From Sphyrna mokarran (Eukaryota): a stretch of DNA of 64,000 nt. The translations under genes were made by a program, and so were the position numbers. Shown here piece by piece: positions 1-60,986 of the stretch. Location of the stretch: assembly GCA_024679065.1 (NCBI GenBank), contig JAGIQG010000012.1, positions 55,242,001 through 55,306,000 of the forward strand. The letters run 5' to 3'. Position 1 is the first letter of the stretch, and every line of letters begins with the position of its first letter. The notes under the pieces were generated by a model that was not told the origin of the DNA, made no database searches, and was given only the letters and a program-made list of their open reading frames with translations.

Positions 1-1529
1 CTCAACTCTGCAAAACCACAGCAGTGAGTTGAGGAGCATCTATTAAGTGAATTCTCTAGTTTCAGTATCAAAGAGGTCTCTTATATCTAGAGGCTCAGAA
101 TATTCCTGGAATTCATCTTCTTTCTTTAGGAAGTCTATCTTCTTTCTTCAATGGTGGGTCAGTGATTTTTGATGCTTTTTAAATATGGCACTCATATATG
201 ATAATGGGATGCATGCAATAAAGTTGCTTCACCATTGAATGGGGTGCTAAATCCCTGGATAGATAATTAATGAGGTTAGAGTTGGAAGGAATGGTGGTTC
301 CCCATTGGTCTCAGTAACAAAAAACACTCTCTGTCCTCACCCTGTGACTTAGTCCCAGGTTAGAGAATTCTGTTTTAAGTATTGAAATTTACAAGTTTAA
401 GAAAAAAGAAAGAGAAGTAGGATCATTGCAAAGAGTGGCAGATGAACTGATGCAGTGATACAAAAGCAACAGTATGAATGGCCTCCTTCCGTGTTGTGAT
501 TTTTATAGCTCTATGATGCACTATTTGGAAGCATCATGAATGTGCCAGCAGGTCCAAGGCCACAATATTTCAAAAGGTATTTCACAGGACACAAGTCCCA
601 ATAACGAAATTAGCAGTCGTAGACAACCAAAAAGAAATACATTAATCCACTAATAGGAAATACTTTGGATAGATGATGGTACCATTCAGGGAAGACATAC
701 ATACAGTAAAGTTAGAATTAGCAGAAGCCAGGAGGACGGACAACCAGATACACAGAGTATCTTTAAAGAGAAACAATGATGTAATTGGCAGCCATTTTGT
801 GGAAACAGAAAAGCAATATCCATCCAGCAGACCAGAAACCAGCGTGCAAAGTATCTTTCGTGTCGGTGGTTAAAAACCATATCTCCGCTGAATCAAGAAG
901 AGATGTAACTCAGAATAACTACTCAATCATAAATAGTGTGGTAACTATAAGCTGGCCTTTATTTATATAGATCTATTGGATTGGAGTTTGTTCGGGCAGA
1001 GGGAAGTCCTGAAAGAATTCAAATCTTATAAATGTATTTTGGATTAAAGGGTAATTTCTATTTGAACTGTACGGGTGTGTTTAGAATTCTTGTATGTAAT
1101 TGTCTTACATCTGTTTGTGTATATATATCCTTTCTTTACAGTAAAGTGTTTTACTATGACTGGGCTTGTTATCGTGCTCACTGAGTATCGCATGAGGCTG
1201 CTCACACCATTCCTAGAAACAAAACCGTACCCCACCATGAACCGGTGTTTCAGGTCGGGACATCCTCGCCGTTAACATCAGCCGGGTTCACGACAGAAGT
1301 ATATGTATGCATGTCAAGCAGAATAGAAATTGATTGATCATCACACAAAAATGCCAGACTCATTCACTGTCTATGACATCTGACAAAGAATAGCTAATGG
1401 CTTAATGTACAAAGGGTCACTGCCCAGGACAAGCTGCAACTCAAACAGAAATAACAAATAGTTAAGGAGAATAAAACATCACTTCATGAATTCTTCCTTA
1501 ATACTTCCCTTCATTGTCATGAGGAAACC

Positions 1530-1795
1530 TCCACCCTCAAAAGGACCAGGGCACCACGTGCATGGGAACAGCATCACCTGCAAGTTCCTCTTCAAGACAC
1601 TTACCATCTTGATTTAGAACTACGTTGCTGTCCCTTCACTGTCACTGGGCCAAAATCCTCAATACCCCTCCTAACAGTATTGTGTACCTGCACCACATGG
1701 ACTGCACCAATCATGAAGGTGGTTCAACACCACCTTCCCAAGGACAATTAGGGATGTGCAATAAATGACACCCACATCCAATGAAAAATGAACAA
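1530..1795 (+). mobile_element. 3' end fragment of the tRNA-headed LINE family ('LINE-A', CR1-superfamily-like)
   Basis: catgggaacagcatcacctgcaagttcctc...ttcactgtcactgggccaaaatcct...caattagggatgtgcaataaatg is homologous to 29690-29800 and 30640-30856. Confidence 0.8.
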
Positions 1796-2439: not shown

Positions 2440-3035
2440 TGTTCAGAAATACAAATTCATCAGCTGAGGAAGGGTTGTAGTTGGTGATCAGCAGAAGACT
2501 TCCTTGCCCCTGTTCAACCTGATGCCATGGGACTTCATGTGAACTGTAGAAAATGTTGTGGAGTGGTAGGACAGCTCACTTAAGACTATACCAGTGCTTT
2601 GCCATGTCTAATGGGTCTGGTTTACTGGTGAGACAAGATGTGCTCATAGACGGAAACAGAGGTGCTAAGACATTGGCCATAAAGCATGATTCAAGTTGTT
2701 CCTCAAATAGTCTGTTGGATAGCACTCCCAGTTTTTTCACAAGACCTGGATTTTAGGAAGGAGAACTTTGCAGGGTCAACTGGGCAGGGGGTGCCAACAT
2801 CATTTTGGTGTTTAGGTCGATACCAGCAATCAGCCCCAGTTTCATTCCTTGTCAATATTTCTAAGTAGTTTAGTAGAATCTAGTGGTAAGTCATTTCAAT
2901 GAACAGTTAAGAGTCAACCACTTTGTGTGGATCTGGAATCACACCAGGTAATTACAGCAAATTTATTTCCAAAAGAATATTAGTAAACCAAGTGCATTTT
3001 TAAAACAATCCAATAAATTCACGGTTACCATTACT
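2440..3035 (-). mobile_element. 5' part of LINE-A: endonuclease region joined to SINE-like head sequence
   Basis: Colinear with 16350-16925 (catcagctgagga..., cctgatgccatgggacttcatg, gttaagagtcaaccac, ggaatcacac). Confidence 0.75.
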
Positions 3036-3969
3036 TTGGAAGTATCCTTTTTTTTGGTTAACGACATCCATTCATGGGAAGGAAAAGATACTTGTAAGAG
3101 GGAAGCCTAGCATCTTAAAAATTAATTAAATGCAGATTTATCCCTCACAAACTAAAAACATTTGCAAAACAGGGAAATCAGAGGGTAGTGTCTGATCAAA
3201 CATTTTGCTCAAAGTAGCTTTAAAGATCCTGCCCTGTTTCCACAGTACAACAATTGCAGACAAGTTCTGGATGCTTTTTGATTGAGGCATCATTCAAAGA
3301 CAACAGTACTAACATACTGTAATTTTTTTTTTACAAAATTCCCAACAGGTCAGAGAATGGATGGATTGGAAGAGTTAAACTGAGCAGGAAAAGCTTCATC
3401 CATGATCGAGAATGTCTAATTTGAAGGCAACGTAATAATTTCCCAGAAATTGGTTACACTTTTTAGATATATACCAAAGGTGAAAGCTTGTCTCAAGAAA
3501 GGTGTATCAAATAATCTACTTGCAAAAAAATGAAAAGGCTTTCAAATAGAATTCATCAAGTTCTTCTGATTTGACCCATGAGATGACTTGGTATGGGCTT
3601 TGAGTTTTCACTTGGGTTATTAATTGATAATAAATTCATAGGGATGACAAAGAGAAAAGTAGCTATTAGATTTTTGTTGAGTATGTATTTCACAATTTAA
3701 TTTCTCTGATAATTCTGGTGATTTCTTGGCAATCTTATGTAAACTCACTTGCCTCACGTAGTAGGTACATTTTTAACTGCCGAGTTGTAAATTTGTGTGC
3801 CAGTAATTTTAACTTAATTATTTTTAATGTATCCAAAGTTTGACTGGTCTGAATACAAGTAAAATTAAAGTACAACAATCCCATAAATCAGGGAATATGT
3901 TTTGGCAGAAAGCTTTTATAACCAAGAACAAGTCTGCATTTAGAAACTTATCTTTTCAAAGGACAAAAA

Positions 3970-9179: not shown

Positions 9180-9440
9180 CCCTAAACTCATATTCCAGTG
9201 CTTTTACCATGGTTAATCCACCTAACCTTCACATCTTTGGATACCGAATTGTAATTTAGCATGACCAATTCACCTAACCTGAACACCTTTAGAATGTGAA
9301 AGGAAACTGGAACACCTAGAGGAAGCCCACACAGTTATGAGAAGAACGTGCAAACTCCACACAGCCACCCAAGGCAGGAATCAAACCCAGGTCCCTGGTG
9401 CTGTGAGGTAGCAGTGCTAACCACTCTACCACCTGGCACC
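9180..9440 (-). mobile_element. HE1-like tRNA-derived V-SINE
   Basis: Reverse complement reads gtggttagcactgctacctcacagcaccagggacctgggtttgattcc...gtggagtttgcacgttcttc...gtgggcttcctctaggtgttccagtttcct. Confidence 0.85.
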
Positions 9441-11184: not shown

Positions 11185-11960
11185 AAGTACTTGCATTTAC
11201 ATGGCATCTTTTATAATCTCAGCATGGCCCAAAGCACTTTATTTTTGAAGTTCTTTTGAAGTGTAGTCATTATTGTAATGTATGAACATTCATATATGGG
11301 AGACATTGGCGGAGTGATAATGTCACTGGACTAGTAATCCAGAAGCCTAGGCTAATGTGCTGGGGACATGGGTTCAAATTACACTATGGCAACTGCTGGA
11401 ATTTAAATTCAATTAATAAATCTGGAATTATAATACTAGAGTCAGTAATGGTGACCATGAAACTAACGTCAATTGTTATAAAAATCCATCTGGTTCACAA
11501 ATGTCCTTTAAGGAAGGAAAATTCAGACCCACAGCAACATGGTTGACTGTCCTCTGAAATGATCTAGCAATCACTCATTTAAAGTGCAACCAGGGATGGC
11601 AATATTCATATCCCATGGAAGAACTAAAGAAAACAAAATTGCAGCTGCCAATTTGCAAACTCTCCCAAACAGAAATGAGATAAATAGTCAGATCATCTAT
11701 TTTGAATGGCTGAGGGATAAACAGTAATAGAAGCACAGTAAGAACTCCCCTGTTTTTTTGAATGGAGAGAATAAATGGAGGCATAAATTTAACATTGCAT
11801 CTGAAACTTGGCATCTCCAATAACACAGCACAGCTTCACTTCTGCACTAAAGTGCCAGCCTGGGTTATGTGCTCAAGCCTCTTACACAGGACTGAAACTA
11901 CCAAACATTCTGACTCAGTGAGGGATACTGCTGCTATCACTGAACCAAAGCTGGCACAAC
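11185..11960 (-). mobile_element. Deu-domain SINE (SacSINE1-like), interrupted by a tRNA-headed SINE
   Basis: L2-like tail acttgcatttacatggcatc at 11189 and head tgtgccagctttggttcagtgatagcagc on the minus strand near 11960. Homologous to 37993-38615. Confidence 0.65.
11298..11633 (+). mobile_element. tRNA-derived SINE composed of the LINE-A head and the LINE-A 3' tail
   Basis: A-box-like tggcggagtga, stem-loop ctgga-ctagtaa-tccag (11326-11342), B box ggttcaaat (11371), and tail caaccagggatggcaata...catatcccatg. Confidence 0.8.
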
Positions 11961-12967
11961 AACACATAGTCACCTATGAATCAGAAGTACAAAACTTATC
12001 TGTCGGTGACTAAATTTTGCCATCTGTAATATACCTTGCTTAAAAATTTGTTCATGGATACTAGCAACACTGGAAAGGCCAGCAACTCTAATTGTGTGTT
12101 GACAAGACAGTGGTAAATTGCCTTTCTGAATTGCTGCAATCCATCTGGTGTAGGGACACTCAAGTGATGTTATAGTTTCAGGATTTTTCTCCGCCATTAG
12201 GGGGTCCATGACAAGATGGTATGTGACTTGGAGGAGAACTTGCAAATGATTGTGTTCTCTTTACGTGTTGATTTTGCACATCTAGGTGGTAGAGATGAAA
12301 GGTTTCGAAAGTGTTGTTGAAGGAGCCTTGGGTGTGAGTTGCTACAAATGCATCTTGTAAACAGTACCAACAACTGCCACTATGTGCTGGTGGTGAGGGC
12401 TGAAGACAGCGAATAGGGCTTCTTTGTCCTGGAAGGTGAATTTGATCCAGGCAAGTCATTTCCATCATACTTTTAATTTGTGCCTTGTAGATGGTGGGCA
12501 AACCTAGGGAAGTCAAGAGGTGAGTTACTTGCCTAAAAAGTCTGAGCCTCTGAACTGCTTTTGTTGCCACAATATTTACATGGTTAGTCCAGTTAACTTT
12601 CTAGTCAATGGTTGGAACGTTAATGCTTGGGGATTCAGCAATGGTGAAGTCATCAAACATCAATGGGATTCTCTCTATATGGAGATGGTCATTGCCTGGT
12701 ACTTGTGTGTTACTTGCTATTTATTAGCCCAAGCCTGAATGTTATCCATGTCTTGCTGCATGCAGACATGAACTGCTCAGTATTTGAGTCATGAACAGTA
12801 CTGCACATTGTAATCAGCGAACATTCCCATCCTTGAACTCCTGATGGACGAAAGACAATTCATGCAGTACATCTGAACATGCTTTGGCCTGGGATACCAA
12901 ATTAAGCAACTCCTACAACTATGTTCTAGGGCTGAGATGATTAGGCTCCAATAAGCACAGCTATCTT

Positions 12968-13160
12968 GTATAGAAGATTGGAAGAGTAGGTCATTGAGCC
13001 TTCAAGTTTTGCCAATTGATATGTTATAGTGTCTATCTCAACACTATACTCCTGCTCTTCCCATACTCATTGGCGCCATTAAAGTTTAGAAATCTATTTC
13101 CTTGTTGAGTATCTTCAATGACTTGGCTCCACAGTCTTTTGTGGTAGAAAATTCCTTTCT
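12968..13160 (-). mobile_element. Short CR1 3' end inserted in LINE-A
   Basis: atagaagattggaagagtaggtcattgagcc...ctccacagtcttttgtggtagaaaattcc. Confidence 0.6.
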
Positions 13161-13914
13161 GTTAGGTATGATTCCAAGCAGTGAGGAGTTTACACCCCAC
13201 CTGTAACTCCCACTGATTTCAATTTTGCTTGTGTTCCATGATGCTATTCTTGGTTAAATGCTGTATTGATGTCAAGAGCAGCCACTCTAATCTTACTTAA
13301 GGGATTCAGCTCATTGGTACATATTTGGGCAATGGATGTCATGAGGTCTGGAGTCAAGTGGCTCTGATGGAATCAAAATGAGCATGTTATTGCTTAGCAC
13401 CTATTAACAGTAAATGACAATTTCCATCACCATTGATCATTGAAAGTAGACTGATGATAACTGAATAATTGGGTTTGCCTTTATTTTATGTACAGGAAAT
13501 ACTTAGACAATTTTCCATATTGTCAGGTAGATGCTAGCGTTGCAGCTCTACTGAAACAGCTTGGCTACTGGTGTGGCTCGATCTGGAGCACTAGTCTTCA
13601 GCATTACAATTGGGATGCTGTCAGGGCCCTTAATCTTTGCTGTATCTTTTACTTTGAACCTTTTCTTGATATCACATGGAATAAATTAAATTGGCTCAGG
13701 ACTCACATCATTACACAGAAGACTTCAGAAACAGACAAAAAGCTGGATCATCAGCTTGACACTTGTAGCTGAAAATAGTTACAATTGCAGCAATCCTTGT
13801 TGTTTGCACTGATGAGCTGGGCTCACTCACCATTTTTAATAGGGATATTTTCACAGCATTCTTCTCCAGTTAGTTATTTAATTGTCTATCACCAATTCAT
13901 GATTAATAATGTAC

Positions 13915-13990
13915 AATATTGGATTTTAACTTAGTGTTGAGACTGCTTACTGTGCCTACTCCAGTCCATTGCCGGCATCTCCACATCATT
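13915..13990 (+). mobile_element. Penelope pLTR tail fragment inserted in LINE-A
   Basis: ggattttaacttagtgttgagactgcttactgtgcctactccagtccattgccggcatctccacatcat is near-colinear with 45950-46020. Confidence 0.75.
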
Positions 13991-14454
13991 CACAATTAGA
14001 CATAGTAGCACTAGAGAGCTGATCCTTTTATTGTGGGAGCACTTTGTTCTGCCAATAGTATGTTGCTTCAACATTTACCATGCATGTAAGTCTAGTACTG
14101 TACCTTCACTAGGTTGGCATCTCATTTTTAGGTATGCCTGGTGCTGCTGTTGACATGCTTTTCTTTACTTCTTATTAAACCAGAGTTAGTCACCTGGCTT
14201 AATGGTAATGGAGTGAGATATATGCTAGATCATGAGTTTACAGATTGTGGCTAAATACAATTCTGCTACTGTGGATGGTTTAGTCATAACCTCAGATTTT
14301 TAGTTGCAAGATCTGTTCTGAATCTATCCCACTTAGCATGGAAGTGTGGTGATAGTGCAATATAGTAAAGAGTGATGATGCGATTTGTCTTTACAAAAAG
14401 TGTGGTCACACCTACCAGTATTGTGATGAATAGATGCATCTAGATTGGTGAGGA

Positions 14455-16156
14455 AAAGGCACCAGAAGGTGCATCCAAGGATACGAAGGGAGGTGAGAAT
14501 GGAAATTGTAGAGACACTGGGGATAACCTTCAAGTTTTCCTTAGGCACAAGGTGGTGTCAGAAAACTGGAGAATTGTTCAAAAAGGGTACATGGATAATG
14601 CTGGCAATTGCAGACTAGTCAGTTTAATTTCAGTGGTAGGGAAACCTCTGAAAATATAGTTTGGGACAAAATCAATAGTGACTTAAACAAGTTCAGGATA
14701 ATTTAAGGAAAGCCAGTCTGAATTCATTAAGGGAAAATCATTTTTAACAAATCATTTTTTTTTGAGGAGGTTACTGAAAAGGTTGATAAAGGCAATGCTG
14801 TTGACATGATGTATATAGATTTTTAAAAAGACATTTGATACAGTCCCATGCAACAGATTTATGAGCAAATTTCTTGGTCATGGAATTAAAGGGAAAGTAG
14901 GTACTTGAATGAGAAATTAGCTGAGTGACAAGAAACAGAGAGTTGTGATAAATAATTATTTTTCAGATAGGAGGGAAGTTTGTAGTGGAGTTCTCCAGGA
15001 GTCAAGGTTAGGGTCCTTGCTCTTCCTGATGTATATTACTGACCTAGGCTGGCATGTTCAGGGCATGATTTCAAAATTTTCAGAGATTGGAAGCGCTGTC
15101 AACTGTGATGAGGATAATCTTGAACTTCAAAAAGGACACAAACACACTGGTAGATTGGGCAGACAAGTGGCAGATGAAGATCAATGCAGAGAAGAGCGAT
15201 GGCAGGAATATAGAGAGGCACTATAAAGTAAAGGTAGAAACTTTAAACCAACTGCAGAAATAAAGGTAATTTGCTGTATATAAACACAAGTCACTGAAGG
15301 TGGCAGGCCCAGATCATGTAGAGAGAGCAGTTATTAAAGCATATAGGATCCTAGGTTTGACTAATCAGGGAACTGAGTATAAAAGTAAGGAGGTCATGTT
15401 GAACTTGTTTAACACATTGATTAGGCCTCATCTGGAGCACTTCATCCAGTTCTGGGCACTATTAGTGAGAAAGGATGGGAAGGCATTGGAGAGAGTACAG
15501 AGGAGACTCACAAGAATTCTTTCAGGGATAAATAACTGAGGATTGATTGGAGAGGTTAGCTGTTGGACAAAAGAAAATGGAGAGGAAACTTGATACAGTA
15601 TGAGTATGGACATGGTAAACTGTTCCCTCTTGGGACTACTACTACACAGGTTCAAAAGAATGGGTAAAAAGAGTGATGGGAAGCAAACTTTTATCACCCA
15701 GAGGGTGGTTGGTATTTGGAATGCATTTCCTGAGACAGTGATGGAGGCAAGTTCAATTGAGATATTCCAAACAGAGCCTTTGCTCTTCCTGATATATATT
15801 AATGACCTAGGCTGGCATGTTCAGGGCATGATTTCAAAATTTTCAGAGATGGGAAGCACTGTCAACTGTGAGGAGGATAATCTTGAACTTCAAAAAGGAC
15901 ACAGACACACTGGTGGATTGGGCAGACAAGTGGCAGATGAAGATCAATGCAGAGAAGAGTGATGGCAGGAATATAGAGAGGCAGTATAAAATAAAGGGAG
16001 AAACTTCAATTGGATTGCTACTTGAAAAGAAATAATGTGCAAGGTTATGGGGATAAGGCAGGGAAGAAGGATGAGGATAGAATATTCTTTCAGAGAGGTA
16101 GTGCATAATTGATGGGCCGAATGGCCACCTTCTGCACTGTAAAGATTCTACAATTC
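14455..16156 (+). mobile_element. 5'-truncated CR1 LINE (RT to 3' UTR) nested in LINE-A
   Basis: Peptides SGVLQESRLGSLLFLMYITDL and YKSKEVMLNLFNTLIRPHLEHFIQFW...LERVQRRLTRI. 3' end gatgggccgaatggccaccttctgcactgtaaagattctacaattc. Confidence 0.9.
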
Positions 16157-17067
16157 TGAGGTCAAGAGAATCTTTCCCTCTGACTGGGTCTTTCACCATT
16201 TGCTGCAGGACCAGTCTGGTAGATAAGTCATTCAAGCCTGTTTGGTCAATAGTGATATTATCTAGCCATTCTTGGTGAGGGACGTGGAAGCTCTCCAGAG
16301 TAGATTCTGTGTTCTTGCTTTTTCCAAGTGTCCTCGATCTGGAATCTATGAATCCATCAGCTGAAGGAGAATGGAAGAGGTAATCAGCATGAGATTATTT
16401 TGCTTATTTTTGACCTGATGCCATGAGACTTCATGGGATCTGGAGTCAATTGCAACACCCAGGGGCACTCCATACTAACTGTAACCACTGCATGGTCACC
16501 TCTGATGGGTCCACTCTGCGAGCTGACAAGATATACCCAAGTGTGGTGATGTAGGTGATAGAGACGTTGGCTGGAAGGTAAGATTCAAGAGTTATGTTAG
16601 GTAAGTTGCTTGACAAGTCCACATGATGACTCTCTCAATCTTGGTACAAGTGTCCAGATGTTAGTGAAGAGGACTGTTCGGGGTATGCCTTTGTTGTTTC
16701 TGGTGTCTAGATCAATATATGGTAGTCAATCTGGTCTTATTCAATGGTTCTATTGCAGTCTGATACAACGCAGTGGCCTTCAAAGGACAGGTAAGAGTCA
16801 ACTATATTATTGTGAGTTCAGAATCACATGTAGGCCAGGCCAGGTAAAGACATCAGATTTCACATTTGTGGACCAGATCGAATTTTACAAAAATCTAAAC
16901 AGTTTCATGATCATTATTACTGAGACTGAATTTTAATTCCAGACTTATTAATTAATTGAATTTAAATTCCTTTAGCTACATGGTAGGATGTAAATTAGTT
17001 CCTTCAGAGCATTCACCAAGGCTCTGGATTACAAGTCCAGAAACATTACACTATGCTATCATTTCTC
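16157..17067 (-). mobile_element. LINE-A 5' part: APE endonuclease region plus tRNA-like 5' head
   Basis: Minus-strand peptide LSTRLVLQQMVKDPVRGKDSLDL continues as LTNL..ASIH below 14454. 16780-17067 is the reverse complement of the 11298 and 26826 heads. Confidence 0.82.
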
Positions 17068-18457
17068 TTGAAGAAAAAGGTAATAAAAGCATATTTCAGA
17101 TCTGAATTTTGCAACATAATTTATTTTTATAAGTGAATACTATGGCTTATTTCTCCCTCAAAAAATGATCTCTAATCTTCAAACCTGGGATTTTTCATTA
17201 TTTTCATCAATTTAACTAATAGATTTTCCCATCAACTGGAGCTTGTTCCAAATCACAGCTTCAGAGGGTTGCAGCCAGAACAAATGATTGTTATACCTTT
17301 AAGCTAAACACTGGTCACTAATTTTAAATGTAGAAAAATAACATAATATTTATCACATTTCAAAATCATAGTATTATTGTTAAATGCATTCTAAAAAGCA
17401 TCACAGGGGTTAATCTCAGGCAGCCCATCCAATCTGTCTTTAATAAGCAGTGGACACAGGAATCTTTATTACTTAGATTTAACAATATACGGCTTATGAT
17501 GTATAAATAGCTGCCACATGGTCAATGGATCTGTTCACAGCCAAAGCCTGCAAATGGAGAAGTTGTAGCTGCTGGATTAAGTCATATCATATCAAAGAAA
17601 GGCAAGAACTGACAGCTGAAGAGGGAACTTCACAGCATGAGTATTGGGGCTTTTTTAATGCTCAGCCAGTAGGCTCCGTAGTCATGAGATATGAAGCCAG
17701 TGAATAGCTGGCTTTGGATCCTGCATGTACTGCAGTATGCTAACACCAAACACAAGTCTACAATAGCACATGTTAAAACCACAACTAATGATTGGCTTTG
17801 CTGGGTTCCAAGATGGAGATACGCCAGTACAAAAGAGATGTAGTTACAACAAAGGATGTACGCTCCAGGCTTCTGAGACCAACATTCTACTGTCAATAAA
17901 TAAAGCAGTGACCTCAACAGCTTGCCAAGCTGTGCTTAGAACCCATTGCCCTACTTTTACTATCACTGGTTATTCAGATATTATGCAGGTATTTTTCAAA
18001 ATATACAAAAGATGGTTGATTTTTTTGCCAATATAATAATAGAATTTGAAAATTGGCTTTTAAATATCCTGATACAATGTATGAAAAAGAACAAAAGCTA
18101 GTAAGAACCTGGTTGCACTTTTTCACCCTCATTAACTCCCTTCTCTCTTTGACTCCAAATACCATTCTGAACAGTGGGTAGGCATACTCCTCCCAACACA
18201 ATTGCACAACACACCTGCACTGTCTTAGCCAACAGCCTGTAGAACATACCAAACAACTTGTACAACATACCGTACTGACATAAAATTATCCCATGGAAGA
18301 AAACTGCAAGAATTCCACATTGATTCACTTCACAGAGCTGGATTTCCAAACTTTTCTGCAGTAAATTCAAATTGAACATTATATTGAAATTGAAGATTTA
18401 TTCCTAACTTTTCCAGAATGTCTTCAGTCAGAAATCAGTAACTGTTATACAACTAAA

Positions 18458-18742
18458 TCATAGAATTCCACAGTCAAGAGAAGGCCATTCGGCACATTGA
18501 ACCTGCACTGACAACAATCCTACCCAAGTACTAACCTGTAACTCCACATATTTACCCAGCTAATCCTCCTGTAACTAAGGGGCAATTTAGCATGGCCAAT
18601 CAACCTAACCTGAACATCTTTTGACAGTGAGAGAAAACCAGAGCACCCAAGTGAAACCTCATGCAGACATTCACCCAAGGCCAGAATTGAACCTGGGTCC
18701 CTAGTGTTGTGATGCAGGAGTGCTAACTACTGTGCCACCATA
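18458..18742 (-). mobile_element. HE1-like V-SINE with CR1-type tail
   Basis: aaggccattcggcacattga tail, gcaatttagcatggccaatcaacctaacctg, and the head end ctgtgccacc. Confidence 0.85.
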
Positions 18743-25625: not shown

Positions 25626-26825
25626 TAGTCAAATAAAATTGACTACATACAAACAAAAAAAATAAACAGAATTATGCCCTCATTTGAAAACCATTTTACA
25701 CATGCAAAGCAGGGAAAAGCAAACTGCTTCTCTTGATATATTGCATCCAATATTTTTGACTTTATTGCATTGACTATGGCAACATTCAACATTTAGGAGA
25801 TCTGTCACACACTCAAGATCAACCAGAGCCTCAGGTATGCACCTTTCAAAATGGATCTGCTTTCAGACTCCAATTGCAGGCGTTTACATGTCCTTTCCAA
25901 AGACACATTTTTTAAATATACATTTTGGGATTCAATTCAGGTTCATGTTTCATTCCATTTAACACAGGTACGAAAATATTACCATTTAATCTTCTTTAAT
26001 GATTATTCTTTTCTGTGAATAGTTTAGATAATCTTAGTTACAGAAACTGTCTTTTTGGAAAACCAAGGTCTAAAATATAAAAACATATTCTACAATCCAT
26101 CCCTTCTAAAATAAGTATTAGATACACACGCTCATATTGTGAGCCCAGATGCAGAAGAAAAAAAAGTGTCCCATTTATCAAATTGATTTCCAGCAATGTG
26201 GCTAGATAGCTGGCCAAGTAGTATTTCTCCCGTTTCATATTGTGAAGTAATTGCTGCATTTCAAATTATCATAAACTCAAAAACATAACTATGTTTCCAA
26301 TTTCAAATATTTCAAAAAGTAACACAATAATATAGAATGTTGCTATTTTTAGTTAAATAAATAGGACCTGTAATTTATTTCTGGTCTTAGCTCTATAAAA
26401 CATCTGTTTTCTCACTATATAATTAGCATAATTAATGAATACTAATCAATCCAAACAAATGATTTTTTAACTCCTAAAATAAATCATTTTGATATCACAG
26501 TAGCTATTGACTCAATAATTTACTTATAGGCAATATATCACTCGTCCATTTACCACATGCTGAAAACTGCTATAACTCTTTTCTACAACTTCACTTCAGT
26601 GCAATGTGTCCATTCTCAACAGAAAAGCACTCATACATTTGTTTACAAGACATCGACAAATTTGTGATGTGTGGGTATCCCTTAGGGTAGGATAAATTTA
26701 GCAGGCTTGTCCATTCAATTGTTTACAATAAAATCACACATTTTTGCATCTTGCTAACAGATATAAATTGAGTTAAACACGATTACACTTCAGTTGTCTC
26801 TAATAAGTCTACTGAGATGATATAT

Positions 26826-27135
26826 GGGAAGGTGATGGTGTAATGGTAATGTTACTGAATTAGTAATCTAGGGCCCAGGCTAATACTCTGGTTCTCTACT
26901 CATGGCAGCTGGTGGAATTTGAATTCAAAATTAATATATTCGGAATTGAAAGTTAGTTTCAGTAATGGTAACAATGAAACCATTGTTAACTGTTGTAAAA
27001 ACTCTTCTCATTCCCTAATTTGCTGTTCTGACCTGATCTGGTTTGCATTTGACTCCAGATACACAGCAATGTGGTTGATTCTTAAATGCCTTCTGAAATA
27101 GCCGAGCAAACCATTCAGTTCTATCAAACCATTCG
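26826..27135 (+). mobile_element. LINE-A head / tRNA-derived SINE copy
   Basis: gatggtgtaatggtaatgttactgaattagtaatctagggcccaggctaat...gactccagatacacagcaatgtggttgattcttaa is homologous to 11298-11580. Confidence 0.8.
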
Positions 27136-27733
27136 GGTAAATGAAATGAGATGGACACAAGGGGAGATGGTGGCATAATGGTAATGTCACTGAACAAGTA
27201 ATCCAGAAGCTCAAGCTAATGTCCTAGGGATATGGGTTCAAATTTCACTATGGCAGCGAGTGGAATTTACCCCTAGGCATTGCTGGAGTTGCTCAAAATT
27301 GTGTCCTAGGCCCAACCATCTTTAGCTACTTCATCAATGACCTTCCCTCCATCATAATGTCAAAAACGGGGGTGTTTCTGAATAACTGCACAACGTTTAG
27401 CATTCGCAACTCTCAGACACTGAGATTGTCTGTGTCCATATGGAGAAAAACCTTGACAATATTTGAGCTTGGCTGACAAATAACATTCATACCATTTACA
27501 CCACTCAAATGCCAGGCAATGACCATCTCCAACAAGAAAGAATCTAACTATTTATTTTCAAAGCATTACAATTGCTGAATCCCCCATCAAACATCATGGG
27601 GAATTATCACTGACCAGAAATTGAACTGGCCCAGACATATAAATACCATGGCTACAAGCACAGGTCAGAGGCTGGGAATTCTCAGGTGAGTAACTCACCT
27701 CTTGATTCTCAAAGCTTATCTATCATCTGCAAG

Positions 27734-29421
27734 AAAGGAAAGGAAAGGATTAAGAAAGGAAACAGGGATAATCAAGGAAATTATAGACTGGTAAGCCTCA
27801 CGTCAGTGGTGGGGAAGCTTTTGGAGAAGATACTAAGGGACAGAACATATGCACATTTAGAAAACTATGGACTATTTAGTGACAAGCAGCATGGATTGTA
27901 TGGGGAAGGTTATGTCTCACCAACTTGATTGAGTCTTTTGAAGAGGTGATAAGATAATTGATGAGGAAAGGTGGGCGGATCTAATTTATATAGACTTTAG
28001 TAAAGCGCTTGACATGGTCCCACACGGCTCTCTGGTACAAAAACTAAAATCACATGGGATTCCAGGGATAGGCTGGTTAAATACACAAAAAGCTGGCTTA
28101 GTAATAGAAGACAGAGATAGTGGTGGAAGGGTGTTTTTCAGAAAGGAGATCTGTAGCTAGTAGTGCTCTGCAGGGATCAGTGCTGGGACCACCGTTTGAA
28201 GTATATATATATGATCTGGAGGAAAATGTGAGTGATCTGACTAGCAAGTTTACGGATGGCACAGAAAGTGGTGGAATTGCTGATAGTGCTGGGGATTGTC
28301 AGTGGATACAACATGATATAGATAGATTGGAGACTTCAGCACAGAAATGGCAGATGGAGTTTAATTCAGACAAATGCGAGGTGATGCATATTGGAGGATC
28401 AAATTTAGTTTTGAATTATACTGTAAATGGCAGACCCCTCAGGAACATTACCATACTAAAGGATACAGGTGTTCCCTAAAAATGCAACAAAGAGTTGGCC
28501 AAGCTGATTAAGGCAGCATATGGCAAATACAATGAGTGCAAGAGTTGGGAAATCATGTTGCATCTATACAAAATCTTGGTTAGACTGCACATGAAGTAAT
28601 GTGTGCACCACACTGCCAGAAGGGTGTGGAAGCTTTGGAGAGAGTGCAAAGAAGATTCATTGGGACATTGCCTGGTTTCAAGGGTGTTGAGGTGAGGTTG
28701 AATAAACTAGACTTGTTTTTGCTAGAAAGACAGAGGCTGAGGGGAGACCTGATAAGAGATCTACAAAATTATGAGAGGCATAGACAATGTGGATAGTCAG
28801 AAGCTTTTTACAAGGGTGGAATTGTCAATTGCAAGAGGACAGAGGTTCAAGGTAAGGGGTGGGGGGGGGAGAGTTAAAGGGAGATGTTGGGAGTGTTGGG
28901 GGGATTTTTCACTCAGAGTGGTGGATGCGTGGAATAGCATGGTGGCACAATGGTTGGCACTGCTGCCTCACAGTAGCAGGGACCCAGATTCGATTCCCAG
29001 CTTCGGTCACTGTGTGTGTGGAGTCTGCACATTCTCCCAATGTCTGTGTGGGTTTCTTCCCAGTGCCCTGATTTCCTCCCACAGTCAAAGATGTGTGGGT
29101 TAGGTGGATTGGCCATGCTAAATTGGCAATTAGTGTCAGAAGGACTGGCTAGGCTAAACACATGGGATTACAGGGATAAGGCCTGAGTGGGTTTGTGGTC
29201 GGTGCAGACAATGAACCGAATGGCCTCCTTCTGCAGCGTAAAAGGAGGTGGCAAAAGGAGGCACATTAGCAATATTTAAGAGGCATCTGGATGGGTACAT
29301 TAATAAGGAGAGAATAGAGAGATACAGACCAAGTAAAGGCAGAAGACTTTTCTTGAGTTAGAACATCATGATCGGCACAAACCGATTCTTGTTCTTGTGC
29401 TGTACTTTCCTCTGTTCTTTG
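27734..29421 (+). mobile_element. 5'-truncated CR1 LINE
   Basis: Peptides GNYRLVSLTSVVGKLLEKILRD, QGSVLGP...KFTDGT, WQMEFNSDKCEVMH and LERVQRRF. Confidence 0.92.
28936..29240 (+). mobile_element. HE1-like V-SINE nested in CR1
   Basis: ggtggcacaatggttggcactgctgcctcacagtagcagggacccagattcgattccc...ccgaatggcctccttctgca. Confidence 0.92.
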
Positions 29422-30550
29422 TACAAGGCACAAGTCAGAAGTCTGATTGCATAGTCTCCGTGTGTCTGAGTGAGCACAGCTCCAACAACAATCAAGAAGC
29501 TTAACACCATTTAGGACAAAACAACCTATTTAACTGGTACCCAGACTTCTGCAATGTTCACTCCCTCCACCCCGATGCACATTGGCAGCATTGTATATCA
29601 CCTACAAGGTGCACTGTGGCAACTCACCAAGACTCTAGACAGCACTTACTAATCAGTTGATTTCTACTATCCAGAAAGACATGGGTAGAAAATGCATGGG
29701 ATCATTACTACCTTCGAATTCCTCTTCAACTCGCATACCAACCTCCTTGGAATTATATCACTGTTCTTTCACTTTCGCTGAATCAAAATTTTGAACCCTC
29801 CCCCAACCTTTTTAACTGCATTATGGTTCAGCAGCTATGTCCGCAACACATGAACAAATAGATGTTAAAAATTATGTCAGAATCAGTTGTTTTACTGGGA
29901 GCAACAACTAAAGTTGAAATCTCAAACATTAAGCTCGTAGTTTGTTTCATTTTAATTCAAAACTTACTTCATAATATTTAGGTGTGAAGTGCTGAATATG
30001 CACGCTAGATGGTTATTTACATCATTTGCTCCAATTAGTTACACTATTATTTAAACATCTTATCTGTTGCAACTTGGGAGACAGTATTCAGAGGCATCAA
30101 AAGGTCAAATCACAGTTAATTCAGGAAAAAGAGGCTATGTCAGGAATTAATTTGTAAAAATACCATTCAACCAATGAAGCCTACTGTCTTGGGATTTACA
30201 ATTTCTGTGCATTATTAAGGTAATAATTCTAGTCTATTAAAAAGGACTATCAGCTAAACAATGTGCAGGAGGTGATTAGTTGCATTTAGTACTTTATTAT
30301 TAATAAAGGTACAACAAAGCTCACAGAAATAAGTGGATACTCTAAGGTAGAGATTCAAACAATCAGTAATTCAACAAGTTACTACTCTCCTTACCCAAGA
30401 ACGTTTCATATCATTTGACGTAATTTGCTTTCAATAGCTTTCATTGACGTCAACTGCACTCAATGGCAATCATCTTGCCATCATTTGACGGCAATTGTTC
30501 TCAAATGCTATCATTTGATGTCACTTTGACTCGCAATGATCTGGCTATCA

Positions 30551-30856
30551 CTCTATTTCAACTCCACTCAGGATTCATCAAAGTTCTTCTGGCAGCACCT
30601 TCAAAATCCACAACCATCAAGAAGGACAAAAGAGTCCCTAACTGTCCTGACTTGGAAATTTATTGCTGTTCTTTCACTGTCTCTGGTTTAAAATCCTGGT
30701 GCTTCCTCCCTAACAGTACTGTGGATGTACCTATATCTGGGGGACTACAGCAGTTCAAGAAGACAGCTCACCACCACTTGCTCTAGGGAAACTAGGCATA
30801 GACAATAAATGCTGGCGTAGCAAGTGACACCCATATCCAGTAGATGAATTAAAAAA
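30551..30856 (+). mobile_element. LINE-A 3' end with A tail and ctatca target-site duplication
   Basis: gctgttctttcactgtctctgg...cagttcaagaagacagctcaccaccac...aataaatgctggc...aaaaaaa, with ctatca at 30545-30550 and at about 30858. Confidence 0.8.
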
Positions 30857-58090: not shown

Positions 58091-60015
58091 AAGGCCATGA
58101 TGCCAATATAAATCAGTACAGACACGAAGTATAGCAAAGTCGGTTTTTATAGAGATAAAAAAAGGCAGGACTCTTTTACCAACTCTGACATATTCCATCA
58201 ACTAGCTACAAAGCAATACTGGGAGATTTCTTACCAAGTAAATTGTATATTGTGAATCCATTTCCAAGATAACTGATTACATTGGCCCAGATTTCACTCT
58301 CACCTCTGACCTGATAGCTGTCTGCAAAGATCTAGCAATCTTTTTGGCACAGATTTCCCCTTTCCCAATGTCAGTCTGAATCTGGCATCAATTCAAGGGA
58401 ATATCCAAGTGTCCAACAACAATGATGGCACCAAGCAGAGGAAGCAGCCAATTGCACTCAAATATTTTCATCAACAGCAAACCAGGAAGTAAAATGCACT
58501 GAATTTTCAAACTTTCAATTAAGATTTTAAGAGCACAAAATAAATGACTGGGACATGTAGATGTTATTAAGGCTAAAGCTGACATATAGAAAACCGACTT
58601 CTTAAAAAATTATTTTTAAGATGTGAATTTTTCATATGTGGAGAAATTTGACATTCCACAAATATATGGTCATTTTCCAAAGCCAATTTGGCTATTCAGC
58701 AGTAATTATGAACTTAATAAGCTGCTCCATTTACACTTCATTCAAAGTGCAACAATTCCAAGGGTTGTTCCAATGAGACTAATTGTGTAATTGTGCAACA
58801 TATTGTCAGGCCAGTGATTTTACTTGACTGCAATAGCACATGGAATGAGTGGCATAGAATCACTCACAACAACCTCATTACAACTCCAAAATCTGAGCTA
58901 TTCAACAGTGCAACATAATTACTCCTCCTCATTCCTGAATAATTACTGCCTCAAGATTAAAAACTATGGCCTATTTACACAGTCATGAAACGATTGTGTA
59001 ATTCTTTCTGGGAGAACAGATCATCTTCTCTCCTTTGAATGGAAGCCCCACTTTGCATCTTTAAAGTCATAATGCATAGCTACTGTACTAATGGAGTTTG
59101 TTTTAACTCATGCATTTTCCTACAAACCATTAAAAAGCATGTTGAAAATGAATAAGTTGCAACCCATCAATGCACCATAATAATGGAACATGTATGACTT
59201 TGAACTATAGGAAGATTAGTATTCTGCCATTGCAGGTGTCCTTGCCTTCATTTAACATGACTGGTTACCACTCTGCCATTTACAGAAGTAGTACACGTAT
59301 AATTTTTAAAAATTAAAGTGTTGCTGTTTACTCAATTTTATAAATTATACTATTACATTTGTAAATTTGTAATTCTCTGTTCAGCAAAGTAGATCAGGTG
59401 TGAAATATTATCAATCCATAGCTAAGCACGATGTATTTTCTTCCTATAATTTAAAGCGAAAAACAATATTCATATTGATCAGGAAATCAAGATTCACGCC
59501 CAAATCCGTATCAGAATATTATGCCTTGCTTTGATAATTTGAAATAATGATGAAAGTAATTCTACAAAGGTTCCCCCATTATCACTAAAAAGAGAACATT
59601 GAGATTAGTATAGCTATTGAATTACTGCTCCAGTAGTTTTGCATTAACACACAAAATAACCTGTACAGGGATTGAAATACTTTATCCATGCAGTTATAAT
59701 TCTGCGTACAACAGTCATGGACATTTATGTCTATTTATTGCAAGTAGATGAGTAGATCTGAAAAATACAAGTTAATATCAAAATCACTATGGCCTAGTGC
59801 AAAGATAAACATAACAATTATTCTACAGTGGCTGGTCAGAAATTATTTGTAGCTCTACAGTTTTATTGCAACTTGAGTGCTCCCTGGTGTGCAGATTTGA
59901 AATTCAATGTGAACAAGTACCAGCACTTCTGCTGAAAGTATTTCAAACCCTGAAGTTATATTTAAATACAACAACTTGTCTCAGGATAGATAACCTGGGA
60001 CTTAATCTTAATAAC

Positions 60016-60720
60016 CTGTCACTCATGTTATCATCCGAGCCTTTCTGTTCCTCGTACTCCATTTTGTTCTTATTTGTATTGCACATTTCTTCACTTTCCA
60101 CTACAACTCCATCATCTGGGACTTCTAGTCGCTTTCTCTTTATGATCTTGTCCTTGCTGATCTCCTGAACCTGGAGATGGAAGTGGAGCTGGTTTGGTTG
60201 TATCGAGTGTCCTTCTAAGCCCATGACTGGAGTTTTGCCCTGGGTCAGTGGGTGAAGTGCATTACTGACCTCTGCTGGTGGATCTATAGCCATACGTTTG
60301 ACCTTCCTTCTCCTTCGCAAAGATCTACCACCTAAGTTACTGTCAGTAACAGAATCAGACTCATGCCACGAGTGTCTTTTTCCCCTAACTGCTGTTACAT
60401 TCAGGGAGGATAGACGTTTGGCAACTATCAAGTGATCATCTGAGTCACTGTATGTATTATTTTCCCTGTAGTCCCGAATTGCTTCATCCATGCTAGATTC
60501 AGAGCCCTCACTCATGCAGTGGCCATGCTCCCAGATGTGATGTCCAGCATCTGAACGCCTCTTCCTGCCTCTTCTTTTCCGAGCCTGCCGCTTTAGAAGG
60601 CAAGCAGCTGAACTACGGGTGGCATCATCTCCAAACTCTGGACACCCCCGTGTATGTTCAGAGGTCTCCTCTAGAGCAGAGACCAAATCATGAACCAGTT
60701 CCTCCATTGCTCTGCAGGGC
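60016..60720 (-). CDS. GPATCH2: G patch domain-containing protein 2, exon equivalent to human exon 2 (705 nt; internal ATG of MEELVHDLV at 60707)
   Basis: Translation MEELVHDLVSALEETSEH...LKRQARKRRGRKRRS...WHESD...LRRRRKVKRMAID...DDGVVVESEE...KMEYEEQKGSDDNMSD matches the recalled vertebrate GPATCH2. Acceptor ttttctctatttttaag ends at 60721. Donor AG|gttatt has GT at 60015-60014 (phase 2). Confidence 0.95.
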
Positions 60721-60986
60721 CTTAAAAATAGAGAAAACAAAAAATAATAGTTAAACATTAGAAATATTTGGCATCACTGCTTTAACTACAGATAAAATAT
60801 TAAATATAGACCATAAGACCTCTTGGAGCCTATTATTATAGATGCAAATATACTGATAAAAATACAAATGGACTTTACTTGTATGAATAATGTATGAACT
60901 GCCTTCTTTGTGCAACAAAAACTTAAGGATATCAAATCATTTTGAAGGGATTCTCTGGCAGTCTTAAGGCAAATAAAACAGTTATG

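Follow-up and report, generated by a model that had tools for sequence, protein, structure and literature searches.

A tRNA-like head at the 5' end of the single-ORF LINE Zenon in sharks and rays and its likely role as an internal promoter

A stretch of 64,000 nucleotides of the Sphyrna mokarran genome (GenBank assembly GCA_024679065.1, contig JAGIQG010000012.1, positions 55,242,001 to 55,306,000, hereafter the window) carries on its minus strand, at 12045-17067, an old, decayed, full-length elasmobranch Zenon LINE, here called copy 1. Judged by sequence comparison, elasmobranch Zenon is a single-ORF endonuclease-reverse transcriptase (RT) element, whose tRNA-like 5' head was probably captured once and likely serves as an internal promoter. 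The features are listed in Table 1 in window coordinates.

Results

Organization of copy 1

After removal of three nested insertions, copy 1 is a LINE of about 3.05 kb (3040 nt counted, plus about 20 nt omitted at one junction) with one ORF for endonuclease and RT. The order of head, endonuclease, RT and A-rich tail on the minus strand, as proposed in a previous sequence-only reading, agrees with the matches of a profile built from 11 Zenon-like proteins, which lie in order at 16292-16146, 14284-14018, 13694-13479, 13381-13151 and 12836-12451. The endonuclease stretch reached only 9 bits with the profile and matched P0146 by BLASTP with an E value of 2e-5. The element does not end at 12105 as first proposed, since the decayed A-rich tail reaches about 12045; A-rich ends are found in 4/4 aligned tails, including A7 at 30850. 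Relative to the family about 14 nt are missing near 16861, where loose contig ends occur in 4/4 runs, and the CR1-type insertion contains an internal duplicate with 94% identity (15010-15246 and 15773-16009).

The absence of an ORF1 was confirmed: the endonuclease begins roughly 400 nt into the element, and the DNA beyond 17103 is single-copy, the contig depth falling from 203-2389 to 0.8-19 across the bin edge 17103/17104 in 4/4 sequencing runs. One contig from another organism covers 16346-17250. Pfam gave no match on three frames of 17068-18600 or on the decayed ORF frames, and no real match on 15 single frames of the window. No target site duplication (TSD) above chance was found in the four flank pairs searched (best 5-6, null mode 6).

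Table 1. Zenon-derived features and nested insertions in the window
Feature	Position	Strand	Remark
Copy 1, tRNA-like head part (A box and decayed B box, anticodon-like arm, additional hairpin)	16965..17067	-	matches published Zenon 5' ends
Copy 1, remaining 5' UTR and basic N-terminal extension	16701..16964	-	loose contig ends at 16861
Copy 1, apurinic-type endonuclease, part 1, frameshifted	16151..16700	-	profile and BLASTP
Nested insertions: CR1-type RT fragment and SINE/LINE 3' tail near 16075-16150	14456..16150	+	
Copy 1, endonuclease end and linker	13990..14455	-	
Small high-copy nested insertion	13906..13989	.	loose ends 13938, 13989
Copy 1, RT, part 1	13152..13905	-	
Nested insertion, ~185 nt	12968..13151	.	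gap at profile positions 559-576
Copy 1, RT remainder, C-terminal region, 3' UTR, decayed A-rich tail	12045..12967	-	
Copy 2, 5' UTR without tRNA part and endonuclease start	2450..3039	-	
Short derivative, complete head with both boxes intact, followed by last ~70 nt of LINE tail	11298..11635	+	
Head A, 5' UTR complete, B-box region lost by deletion, tail absent	26825..27135	+	
Copy 3, fusion of RT second half with initial 110 nt of head, both boxes intact	27161..27745	+	
Copy 3, continuation past nested CR1 and SINE insertions	29410..29835	+	
3' fragment of same LINE with tail	1520..1790	+	
3' fragment of same LINE, A7 tail	30633..30855	+	

The head belongs to the elasmobranch Zenon consensus

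Whether the family was already catalogued had been left open. The head matches the 5' ends of the Zenon consensus sequences published from five elasmobranch species (Stuart et al. 2026, PMC13343379), so by this likeness the family is the one catalogued as Zenon (CR1 group). All seven consensus rows (Zenon-1 of CarCar, ScyCan, RhiTyp and HypSab; Zenon-1, 2 and 3 of SquAca) begin with the same tRNA-like head with A and B boxes, and their starts agree within a few bases, which places the head constantly at the 5' end in these species. Four motifs taken from the window heads match only these seven among about 1,000 rows, over the first 400 nt of each. Inspected by eye, the A box is intact in 7/7 rows, and the B box is perfect in three, near-perfect in three and one base short in one. 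Six of the seven families rest on 59-2313 copies each, and in three of them an intact ORF2 is reported. The absence of ORF1 is a published trait of Zenon in general, and the consensus rows, being only 2886-3314 nt long and beginning at the head, leave no space for it. In hagfish and coelacanth the head is missing from 3/3 Zenon rows, which may be incomplete at the 5' end, and it is absent from butterfly Zenon too.

Among 10 protein matches looked up, the top five come from Heptranchias, Heterodontus and Rhincodon, followed by amphioxus and then a moth protein. In an RT tree of 37 rows, the frameshifted window row sits on a long branch with no supported grouping. Word-index protein searches gave no match with the decayed frame, and with P0003 gave seven longer proteins, none of them an intact shark ORF2. 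The head motif was found at eight loci in metagenome contigs, none resembling the window outside the motif, and matched nothing in viral contigs, where related loci were also missing. An A/B-box pattern was not found upstream of 41 invertebrate LINE ORFs, 19 of which have <300 nt of upstream DNA, and the sole tRNA near such LINEs (at L047) is 3 kb away from the match. The word tRNA occurs 0 times in the main text of PMC13343379, which there leaves the tRNA-like head unmentioned; no mention of it was found in the literature searched, and of the 13 full texts listed with the head motifs none is on retroelements, as judged by title.

Other copies and the junction of head and ORF

The same junction of head and endonuclease had been claimed for copy 2, and only part of this claim stands. 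The junction of 5' UTR and endonuclease is common to both copies, but copy 2 can be aligned to copy 1 only from about 16925 onward, and comparison of the 142 nt upstream of it with the tRNA part gives a score of 47, beside a null mean of 40.7 and a 95th percentile of 53, so the tRNA part is absent. An origin of copies 1 and 2 by segmental duplication is excluded by their identity of 61-68% and their unrelated flanks. The head-plus-tail derivative at 11298-11635 and the fusion of head and RT at 27161 are new observations of this study. The first had been taken for a preserved LINE head; the head is indeed intact, but it lies on the plus strand as part of a short element. As in SINE2 elements, A and B boxes are present in the head, and only this 338-nt element is also short and non-coding, which copy 1 (about 3.05 kb, with its ORF remaining) is not.

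These copies bear on the possibility that head and LINE became neighbours by accident, by a SINE landing before an ORF1-less LINE or as an artefact of consensus building. The complete junction from tRNA part to endonuclease is present in only one window copy, the TSD search was negative and short headed elements exist, all of which would fit such a one-off chimera. However, the junction is common to seven consensus rows from five genomes, the continuity of UTR and endonuclease is seen independently in copies 1 and 2, and the head is joined to RT in copy 3. Chance adjacency is thus largely refuted already, and we consider it very improbable. What stands of the original proposal is a single-ORF LINE with a tRNA-like head, likely captured, as in 7/7 consensus rows, without the tRNA-Thr identity and the tRNA junction of the second copy.

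The head resembles a tRNA in its boxes rather than in its fold

The A and B boxes described for the heads at 11298 and 27161 are both intact, and a combined A-box and B-box pattern, composed after the heads had been seen, matches the 64 kb only twice (11307 and 27171), both times in these heads, with 0.01 matches expected. The perfect stem-loop described in the 11298 head is present, and the heads repeatedly show the anticodon-like arm and another hairpin; in copy 1 the A box and the arm are kept and the B box is destroyed. As tRNA genes, defined by a cloverleaf above the covariance-model cut-off, the heads fail: ARAGORN found 0 tRNAs, and the Rfam tRNA model gave 17.5 bits on the copy 1 head (16957-17065; cut-off 29, E 8 over all families), marked its acceptor-stem pairs as broken and was not listed for the three other heads. 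Head folding was no better than that of shuffles (z -0.95 to 1.9), and phage tRNAs gave no match with the head. The Rfam score points only weakly to a tRNA origin, and the suggested assignment to tRNA-Thr is unproven. There may be a likeness to a salmonid tRNA-Leu SINE (SlmI), for which a different tail donor (RSg-1) is listed. MetaSINE, suggested by its tRNA-Thr-like head, was rejected, as the 66-bp Meta domain does not follow the shark head when compared by eye with bivalve MetaSINE rows. V-SINE (V domain, CR1/HER1 tail) was rejected too, the heads being unlike the other SINE family of the window (at 9253, 18584, 28941, 49883, 57008 and 62273), which does not match them and which we take to be HE1.

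The fold could also act in the RNA, as a signal for processing or translation such as a cut on the 5' side that frees the element from a host transcript. For this speak the recurrence of the arm and second hairpin, the 5' ribozymes reported in R2, RTE and Ingi and known from six LINE clades, and the first conserved ATG, which by eye seems to lie in another frame than the endonuclease. But there is no cloverleaf, by ARAGORN, by the broken acceptor pairs and by folding no better than shuffles, and the best-kept letters are those of the DNA boxes, so that we regard a processing or translation signal as improbable.

Terminators and the promoter reading

TTTT terminators were counted as an indirect test of transcription by Pol III, with a mixed outcome, overlapping copies being non-independent in these counts. 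TTTT occurs 3 times in the heads against 8.1 expected (P 0.025) and 12 times over all pieces against 23.7 expected (P 0.0015), with weak depletion in the ORF of copy 1 (5 vs 9.3 expected, P 0.09), which has a T-run at 14397, and in all ORF pieces (9 vs 15.5 expected, P 0.046). The seven Zenon rows contain none in their first 400 nt. No TTTT sits at a shared ancestral place in eight copy pairs, compared with three shared by two CR1 copies, and the CR1 control has 15 vs 8.6 expected. The ORF shows no depletion of the weaker terminators T(A/C/G)TTT (19 vs 15.2 expected). The median TTTT ratio of 35 invertebrate LINE ORFs is 1.11; since 3/35, including the closest relative L009 (1 vs 3.8), are equally depleted, the scarcity of TTTT may be characteristic of the lineage.

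The head might be a mere remnant, or else a promoter region for Pol II, retained as part of the 5' UTR, the boxes serving short SINE-like forms only and the coding RNA coming from Pol II, by internal initiation or host read-through. This would agree with the sharper TTTT depletion in heads than in the ORF, with the description of non-LTR elements as Pol II-transcribed and with the lack of a B box in copy 1 and head A. On the other hand, consensus rows made from long copies retain the boxes in five orders, and in all seven rows the A box follows the element's start by a few bases, as expected of a type-2 promoter; we therefore hold the relic or Pol II reading to be rather unlikely.

For the head as an internal promoter, we assume that it was captured once, likely in the ancestor of sharks and rays. 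TFIIIC would bind the A and B boxes and transcription would set in at the very start of the head, so that each new copy would bring its own promoter along. The single protein would use target-primed reverse transcription, starting at the A-rich tail, to copy the RNA, and deletion of the middle could give a ready-made SINE, such as that at 11298, in one step. The short forms are very likely transcribed by Pol III. Read-through of the whole element by Pol III, making a 3.3-kb coding RNA, is conceivable but doubtful; Pol III products lack a cap and are as a rule short, with SINEs of 100-700 bp according to a review, and such an origin of the mRNA fits poorly for that reason. Failing that, Pol II transcription of these headed copies would supply the protein. 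We offer only tentatively the broader reading of an autonomous LINE with a TTTT-purged 3.3-kb mRNA made by Pol III from a captured tRNA promoter, with cap-free translation and SINEs arising by internal deletion, by which LINE and SINE would be one element in two lengths.

Discussion

Similar combinations are known in part. The BovB lineages are reportedly coding LINEs (RTE clade) with SINE-derived terminal pieces as lineage-restricted add-ons. Published elasmobranch Zenon has the same head and UTR, one endonuclease-RT ORF, no ORF1, an A-rich tail and a length of about 3.2-3.3 kb, whereas the identity of the head, the promoter type and short derivatives are undiscussed in the relevant passages (PMC13343379). 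In Lepidoptera, Persaeus is likewise a short derivative with the 5' and 3' ends of a Zenon LINE, formed by internal deletion, but it lacks a Pol III promoter and shows no homology to tRNA, 5S or 7SL (PMC6740152), whereas the shark LINE and its derivative both have A and B boxes. CoeSINE4, SINE2-1_ACar and the hagfish SINE2 also combine a tRNA head, a LINE 5' UTR and a LINE tail (PMC5786205, PMC7245038); there, however, it is a deleted LINE that acquired the head, and the LINE partner is headless, whereas the shark coding LINE is itself headed. Helenus, Ajax and Cassandra share a Pol III-type promoter derived from small RNA in a retrotransposon other than a SINE, but they are non-autonomous, ORF-less LTR elements of 311-1263 bp (PMC10886601).

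In reviews, LINEs are set apart as coding and transcribed by Pol II, and SINEs as transcribed by Pol III and provided with a small-RNA head, and a conflict between the two promoter types has been argued to be possible. The structural half of this rule is broken by an abundant coding LINE with a tRNA-type head kept in five orders of sharks and rays, which also opens the functional half to a direct test. In practice, annotation will label the 5' ends of Zenon as tRNA pseudogenes or SINEs. Moreover, a headed LINE offers a one-step route to a SINE, by deletion, in which template switching is not needed, and if Pol III makes the Zenon mRNA, the family would be a natural example of a long translated Pol III transcript.

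Structure of the Zenon element and its relatives in the window

Copy 1, a decayed Zenon LINE, runs in minus-strand order from the head at 17067 through endonuclease and reverse transcriptase (RT) to an A-rich tail, and measures about 3.05 kb once the nested insertions are removed. A profile of 11 fetched single-ORF LINE proteins matches its pieces in collinear order, which bears out the minus-strand LINE proposed in the sequence-only reading, with the tail reaching about 12045. The endonuclease scores a weak 9 bits in the profile, yet aligns to that of protein P0146 (E 2e-5), and Pfam gave no match on single frames of copy 1 because of frameshifts. A CR1 nested in copy 1 contains a 237-nt duplicate (15010-15246 and 15773-16009, 94% identical) that looks much younger than the repeats around it. 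Six further Zenon family pieces are found in the 64-kb window.

Zenon family pieces and nested insertions
Feature	Position	Strand
Copy 1 (decayed Zenon LINE)	12045-17067	-
Nested insertion in copy 1	14456-16150	
Nested insertion in copy 1	13906-13989	
Nested insertion in copy 1	12968-13151	
3' end piece	1520-1790	
Copy 2 (UTR and endonuclease)	2450-3039	-
Whole head joined to last ~70 nt of LINE tail	11298-11635	+
Head A	26825-27135	+
Copy 3 (first 110 nt of head fused to second half of RT)	27161-29835	+
3' end piece	30633-30855	

The head-to-endonuclease junction had also been claimed for copy 2. Its UTR is indeed continuous with the endonuclease; it does not bear on the junction with the tRNA part, since copy 2 starts about 140 nt into the head and the DNA upstream scores 47 against the tRNA part, as random sequence does (null 40.7, 95th percentile 53). 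A segmental duplication as the source of copies 1 and 2 is excluded by their 61–68% identity and unrelated flanks. No target site duplication above chance was found in four flank pairs of the window copies. Beyond 17103 contig depth falls to the single-copy level in all four sequencing runs, one of which (X1) may be the source sample, and one contig from another organism covers 16346-17250; therefore, the insertion of copy 1 is old and shared between organisms, and is no assembly error. At 26825-27269 (+) two tandem heads are separated by 25 nt, the second being fused to RT; this is either a copy inserted in the 5' UTR of another or a 5' repeat, as noted for ORF1-less elements in the accessible part of PMC13343379.

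An open frame of 276 codons (59943-60773, minus strand) has no Pfam match; it resembles the initial coding exon of a vertebrate gene of the G-patch domain protein 2 type, and the window repeats are probably in or adjoining this host gene. A separate SINE family, presumably HE1-type and unrelated to the Zenon head, has at least six copies (9253, 18584, 28941, 49883, 57008 and 62273). In-frame Zenon ORF pieces also occur within otherwise ordinary annotated shark proteins (P0174, P0013, P0175, P0177, P0179 and P0080), as either gene-model artefacts or exonised copies. The 41 contigs L009-L049, which carry animal-type LINE ORFs in bacterial genome bins, many of them within a small number of symbiont bins, represent contaminating host DNA; among them, L009 is a single-ORF Zenon-like element that ends in poly-A.

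Distribution of the head among Zenon families

Source species were looked up for 10 of 150 protein matches: the top five come from Heptranchias, Heterodontus and Rhincodon, and lower ones include amphioxus and a moth. In its accessible part, Stuart et al. 2026 (PMC13343379) reports Zenon elements in sharks and rays, with ORF1 universally absent and a poly-A tail present, and states that those of elasmobranchs are absent from repeat repositories. Within the first 400 nt of each of the ten Zenon consensus rows in its table, the head stands at the start of all seven elasmobranch rows (five species, 2886–3314 nt) and is absent from two hagfish rows and one coelacanth row; the endonuclease start falls within this stretch in the stingray row and one dogfish row. 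Across the first 400 nt of about 1,000 rows, four motifs of the window head match only the seven elasmobranch Zenon rows. The Zenon-derived butterfly Persaeus is described, in the part seen of PMC6740152, as without tRNA homology. This distribution argues that the head is a fixed feature of the elasmobranch Zenon lineage, and probably a derived one. Of the autonomous ORF1-less LINE with a tRNA-type head proposed earlier, the head thus proves family-wide, and the absence of ORF1 is an already known Zenon trait.

The elasmobranch rows begin a few bases 5' of the A box. The head probably acts as an internal A/B-box promoter. Because the A and B boxes would be internal to the RNA, such a promoter would be recopied at every insertion, as a LINE requires. 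No Zenon rows other than those of headed families are listed for those elasmobranch genomes, and three of these families include copies with intact ORF2, which suggests that the Zenon protein is most likely encoded by headed copies. Internal deletions at differing points would yield derivatives that are short or retain part of the coding region, as at 11298 and 27161. In the stingray row a conserved ATG lies some 27 codons upstream of the endonuclease and seems, by eye, one base out of frame with it; in copy 2 (2760-2860, minus strand) the ATG and endonuclease readings are in different frames, and the endonuclease frame remains open upstream across an Arg-rich stretch. A non-AUG start or a frameshift is possible.

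Resemblance of the head to tRNA

The A-plus-B box pattern, composed after the heads had been seen, has two matches in 64 kb (0.01 expected), both inside heads, namely those at 11298 and 27161, for which both boxes had been claimed. By eye, A boxes are intact in all seven elasmobranch rows and B boxes perfect or near-perfect in six; copy 1 has lost its B box. The Rfam tRNA model gives 17.5 bits on 16957-17065, under the cut-off of 29 (E 8 over 4227 families; by our arithmetic, about 0.002 if only the tRNA model is counted), and is not listed for the remaining window heads. ARAGORN found no tRNA, and the head folds no better than shuffles. Since the anticodon-like loop differs among the rows and about 20 extra nt including a hairpin precede the B box, the tRNA-Thr(AGT) suggested earlier is reduced to one candidate source; a long-arm tRNA is presumably another.

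Terminators and possible Pol III read-through

Pol III transcripts end at TTTT and partly at T(A/C/G)TTT, according to the part seen of PMC8466645. The 5774 nt of Zenon family pieces contain 12 TTTT runs versus 23.7 expected (P 0.0015), with no depletion of T5 runs (5 versus 6.5); two CR1 copies contain 15 versus about 8.7, and the ratio never fell below 0.85 in 300 random draws. No TTTT run is shared by ancestral position in any of eight copy pairs; one pair carries neighbouring runs at a site that lacks them in other copies. The two CR1 copies have three in common. Judged by copy 3, by residues of relatives or by contigs, four of the five runs in the copy 1 ORF look later-gained and one is ambiguous. 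The heads alone have 3 versus 8.1 expected. The counts for the ORF pieces (9 versus 15.5, P 0.046) and the copy 1 ORF (5 versus 9.3, P 0.09), together with weak terminators that are not depleted in the ORF (19 versus 15.2), count against Pol III read-through. Among 35 control invertebrate LINE ORFs of at least 1200 nt (41 fetched, six shorter ones dropped), the median ratio is 1.11 and three have a ratio of 0.55 or less; one of these is L009, the nearest relative, whose contig does not reach the 5' end of the element. The TTTT counts agree with use of the head by Pol III; that Pol III makes the coding Zenon RNA would be a tentative and rather doubtful extension.

Precedents and implications

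A coding LINE with a tRNA-like head was not found in the literature covered, which left subscription journals mostly, and Repbase, Dfam and SINEBase entirely, outside. SINE pieces at the ends of BovB elements would be a partial precedent. The accessible text of the Zenon paper (PMC13343379) and of a whale shark preprint, with Zenodo files and bioRxiv supplements outside the scope, has no match to 'tRNA'. As far as the parts seen go, ORF1 absence and short deleted derivatives are already known for Zenon (PMC13343379, PMC6740152), and so are tRNA heads on bipartite LINE remnants (PMC5786205, PMC7245038), whereas in elasmobranch Zenon the head is on a coding LINE. The tRNA-like head is a real, family-wide trait of an already catalogued LINE. 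Salmonid genomes may hold a repeat resembling the body and tail of the short element 11298-11635 (+); if true, this likeness would suggest horizontal transfer or an older origin.
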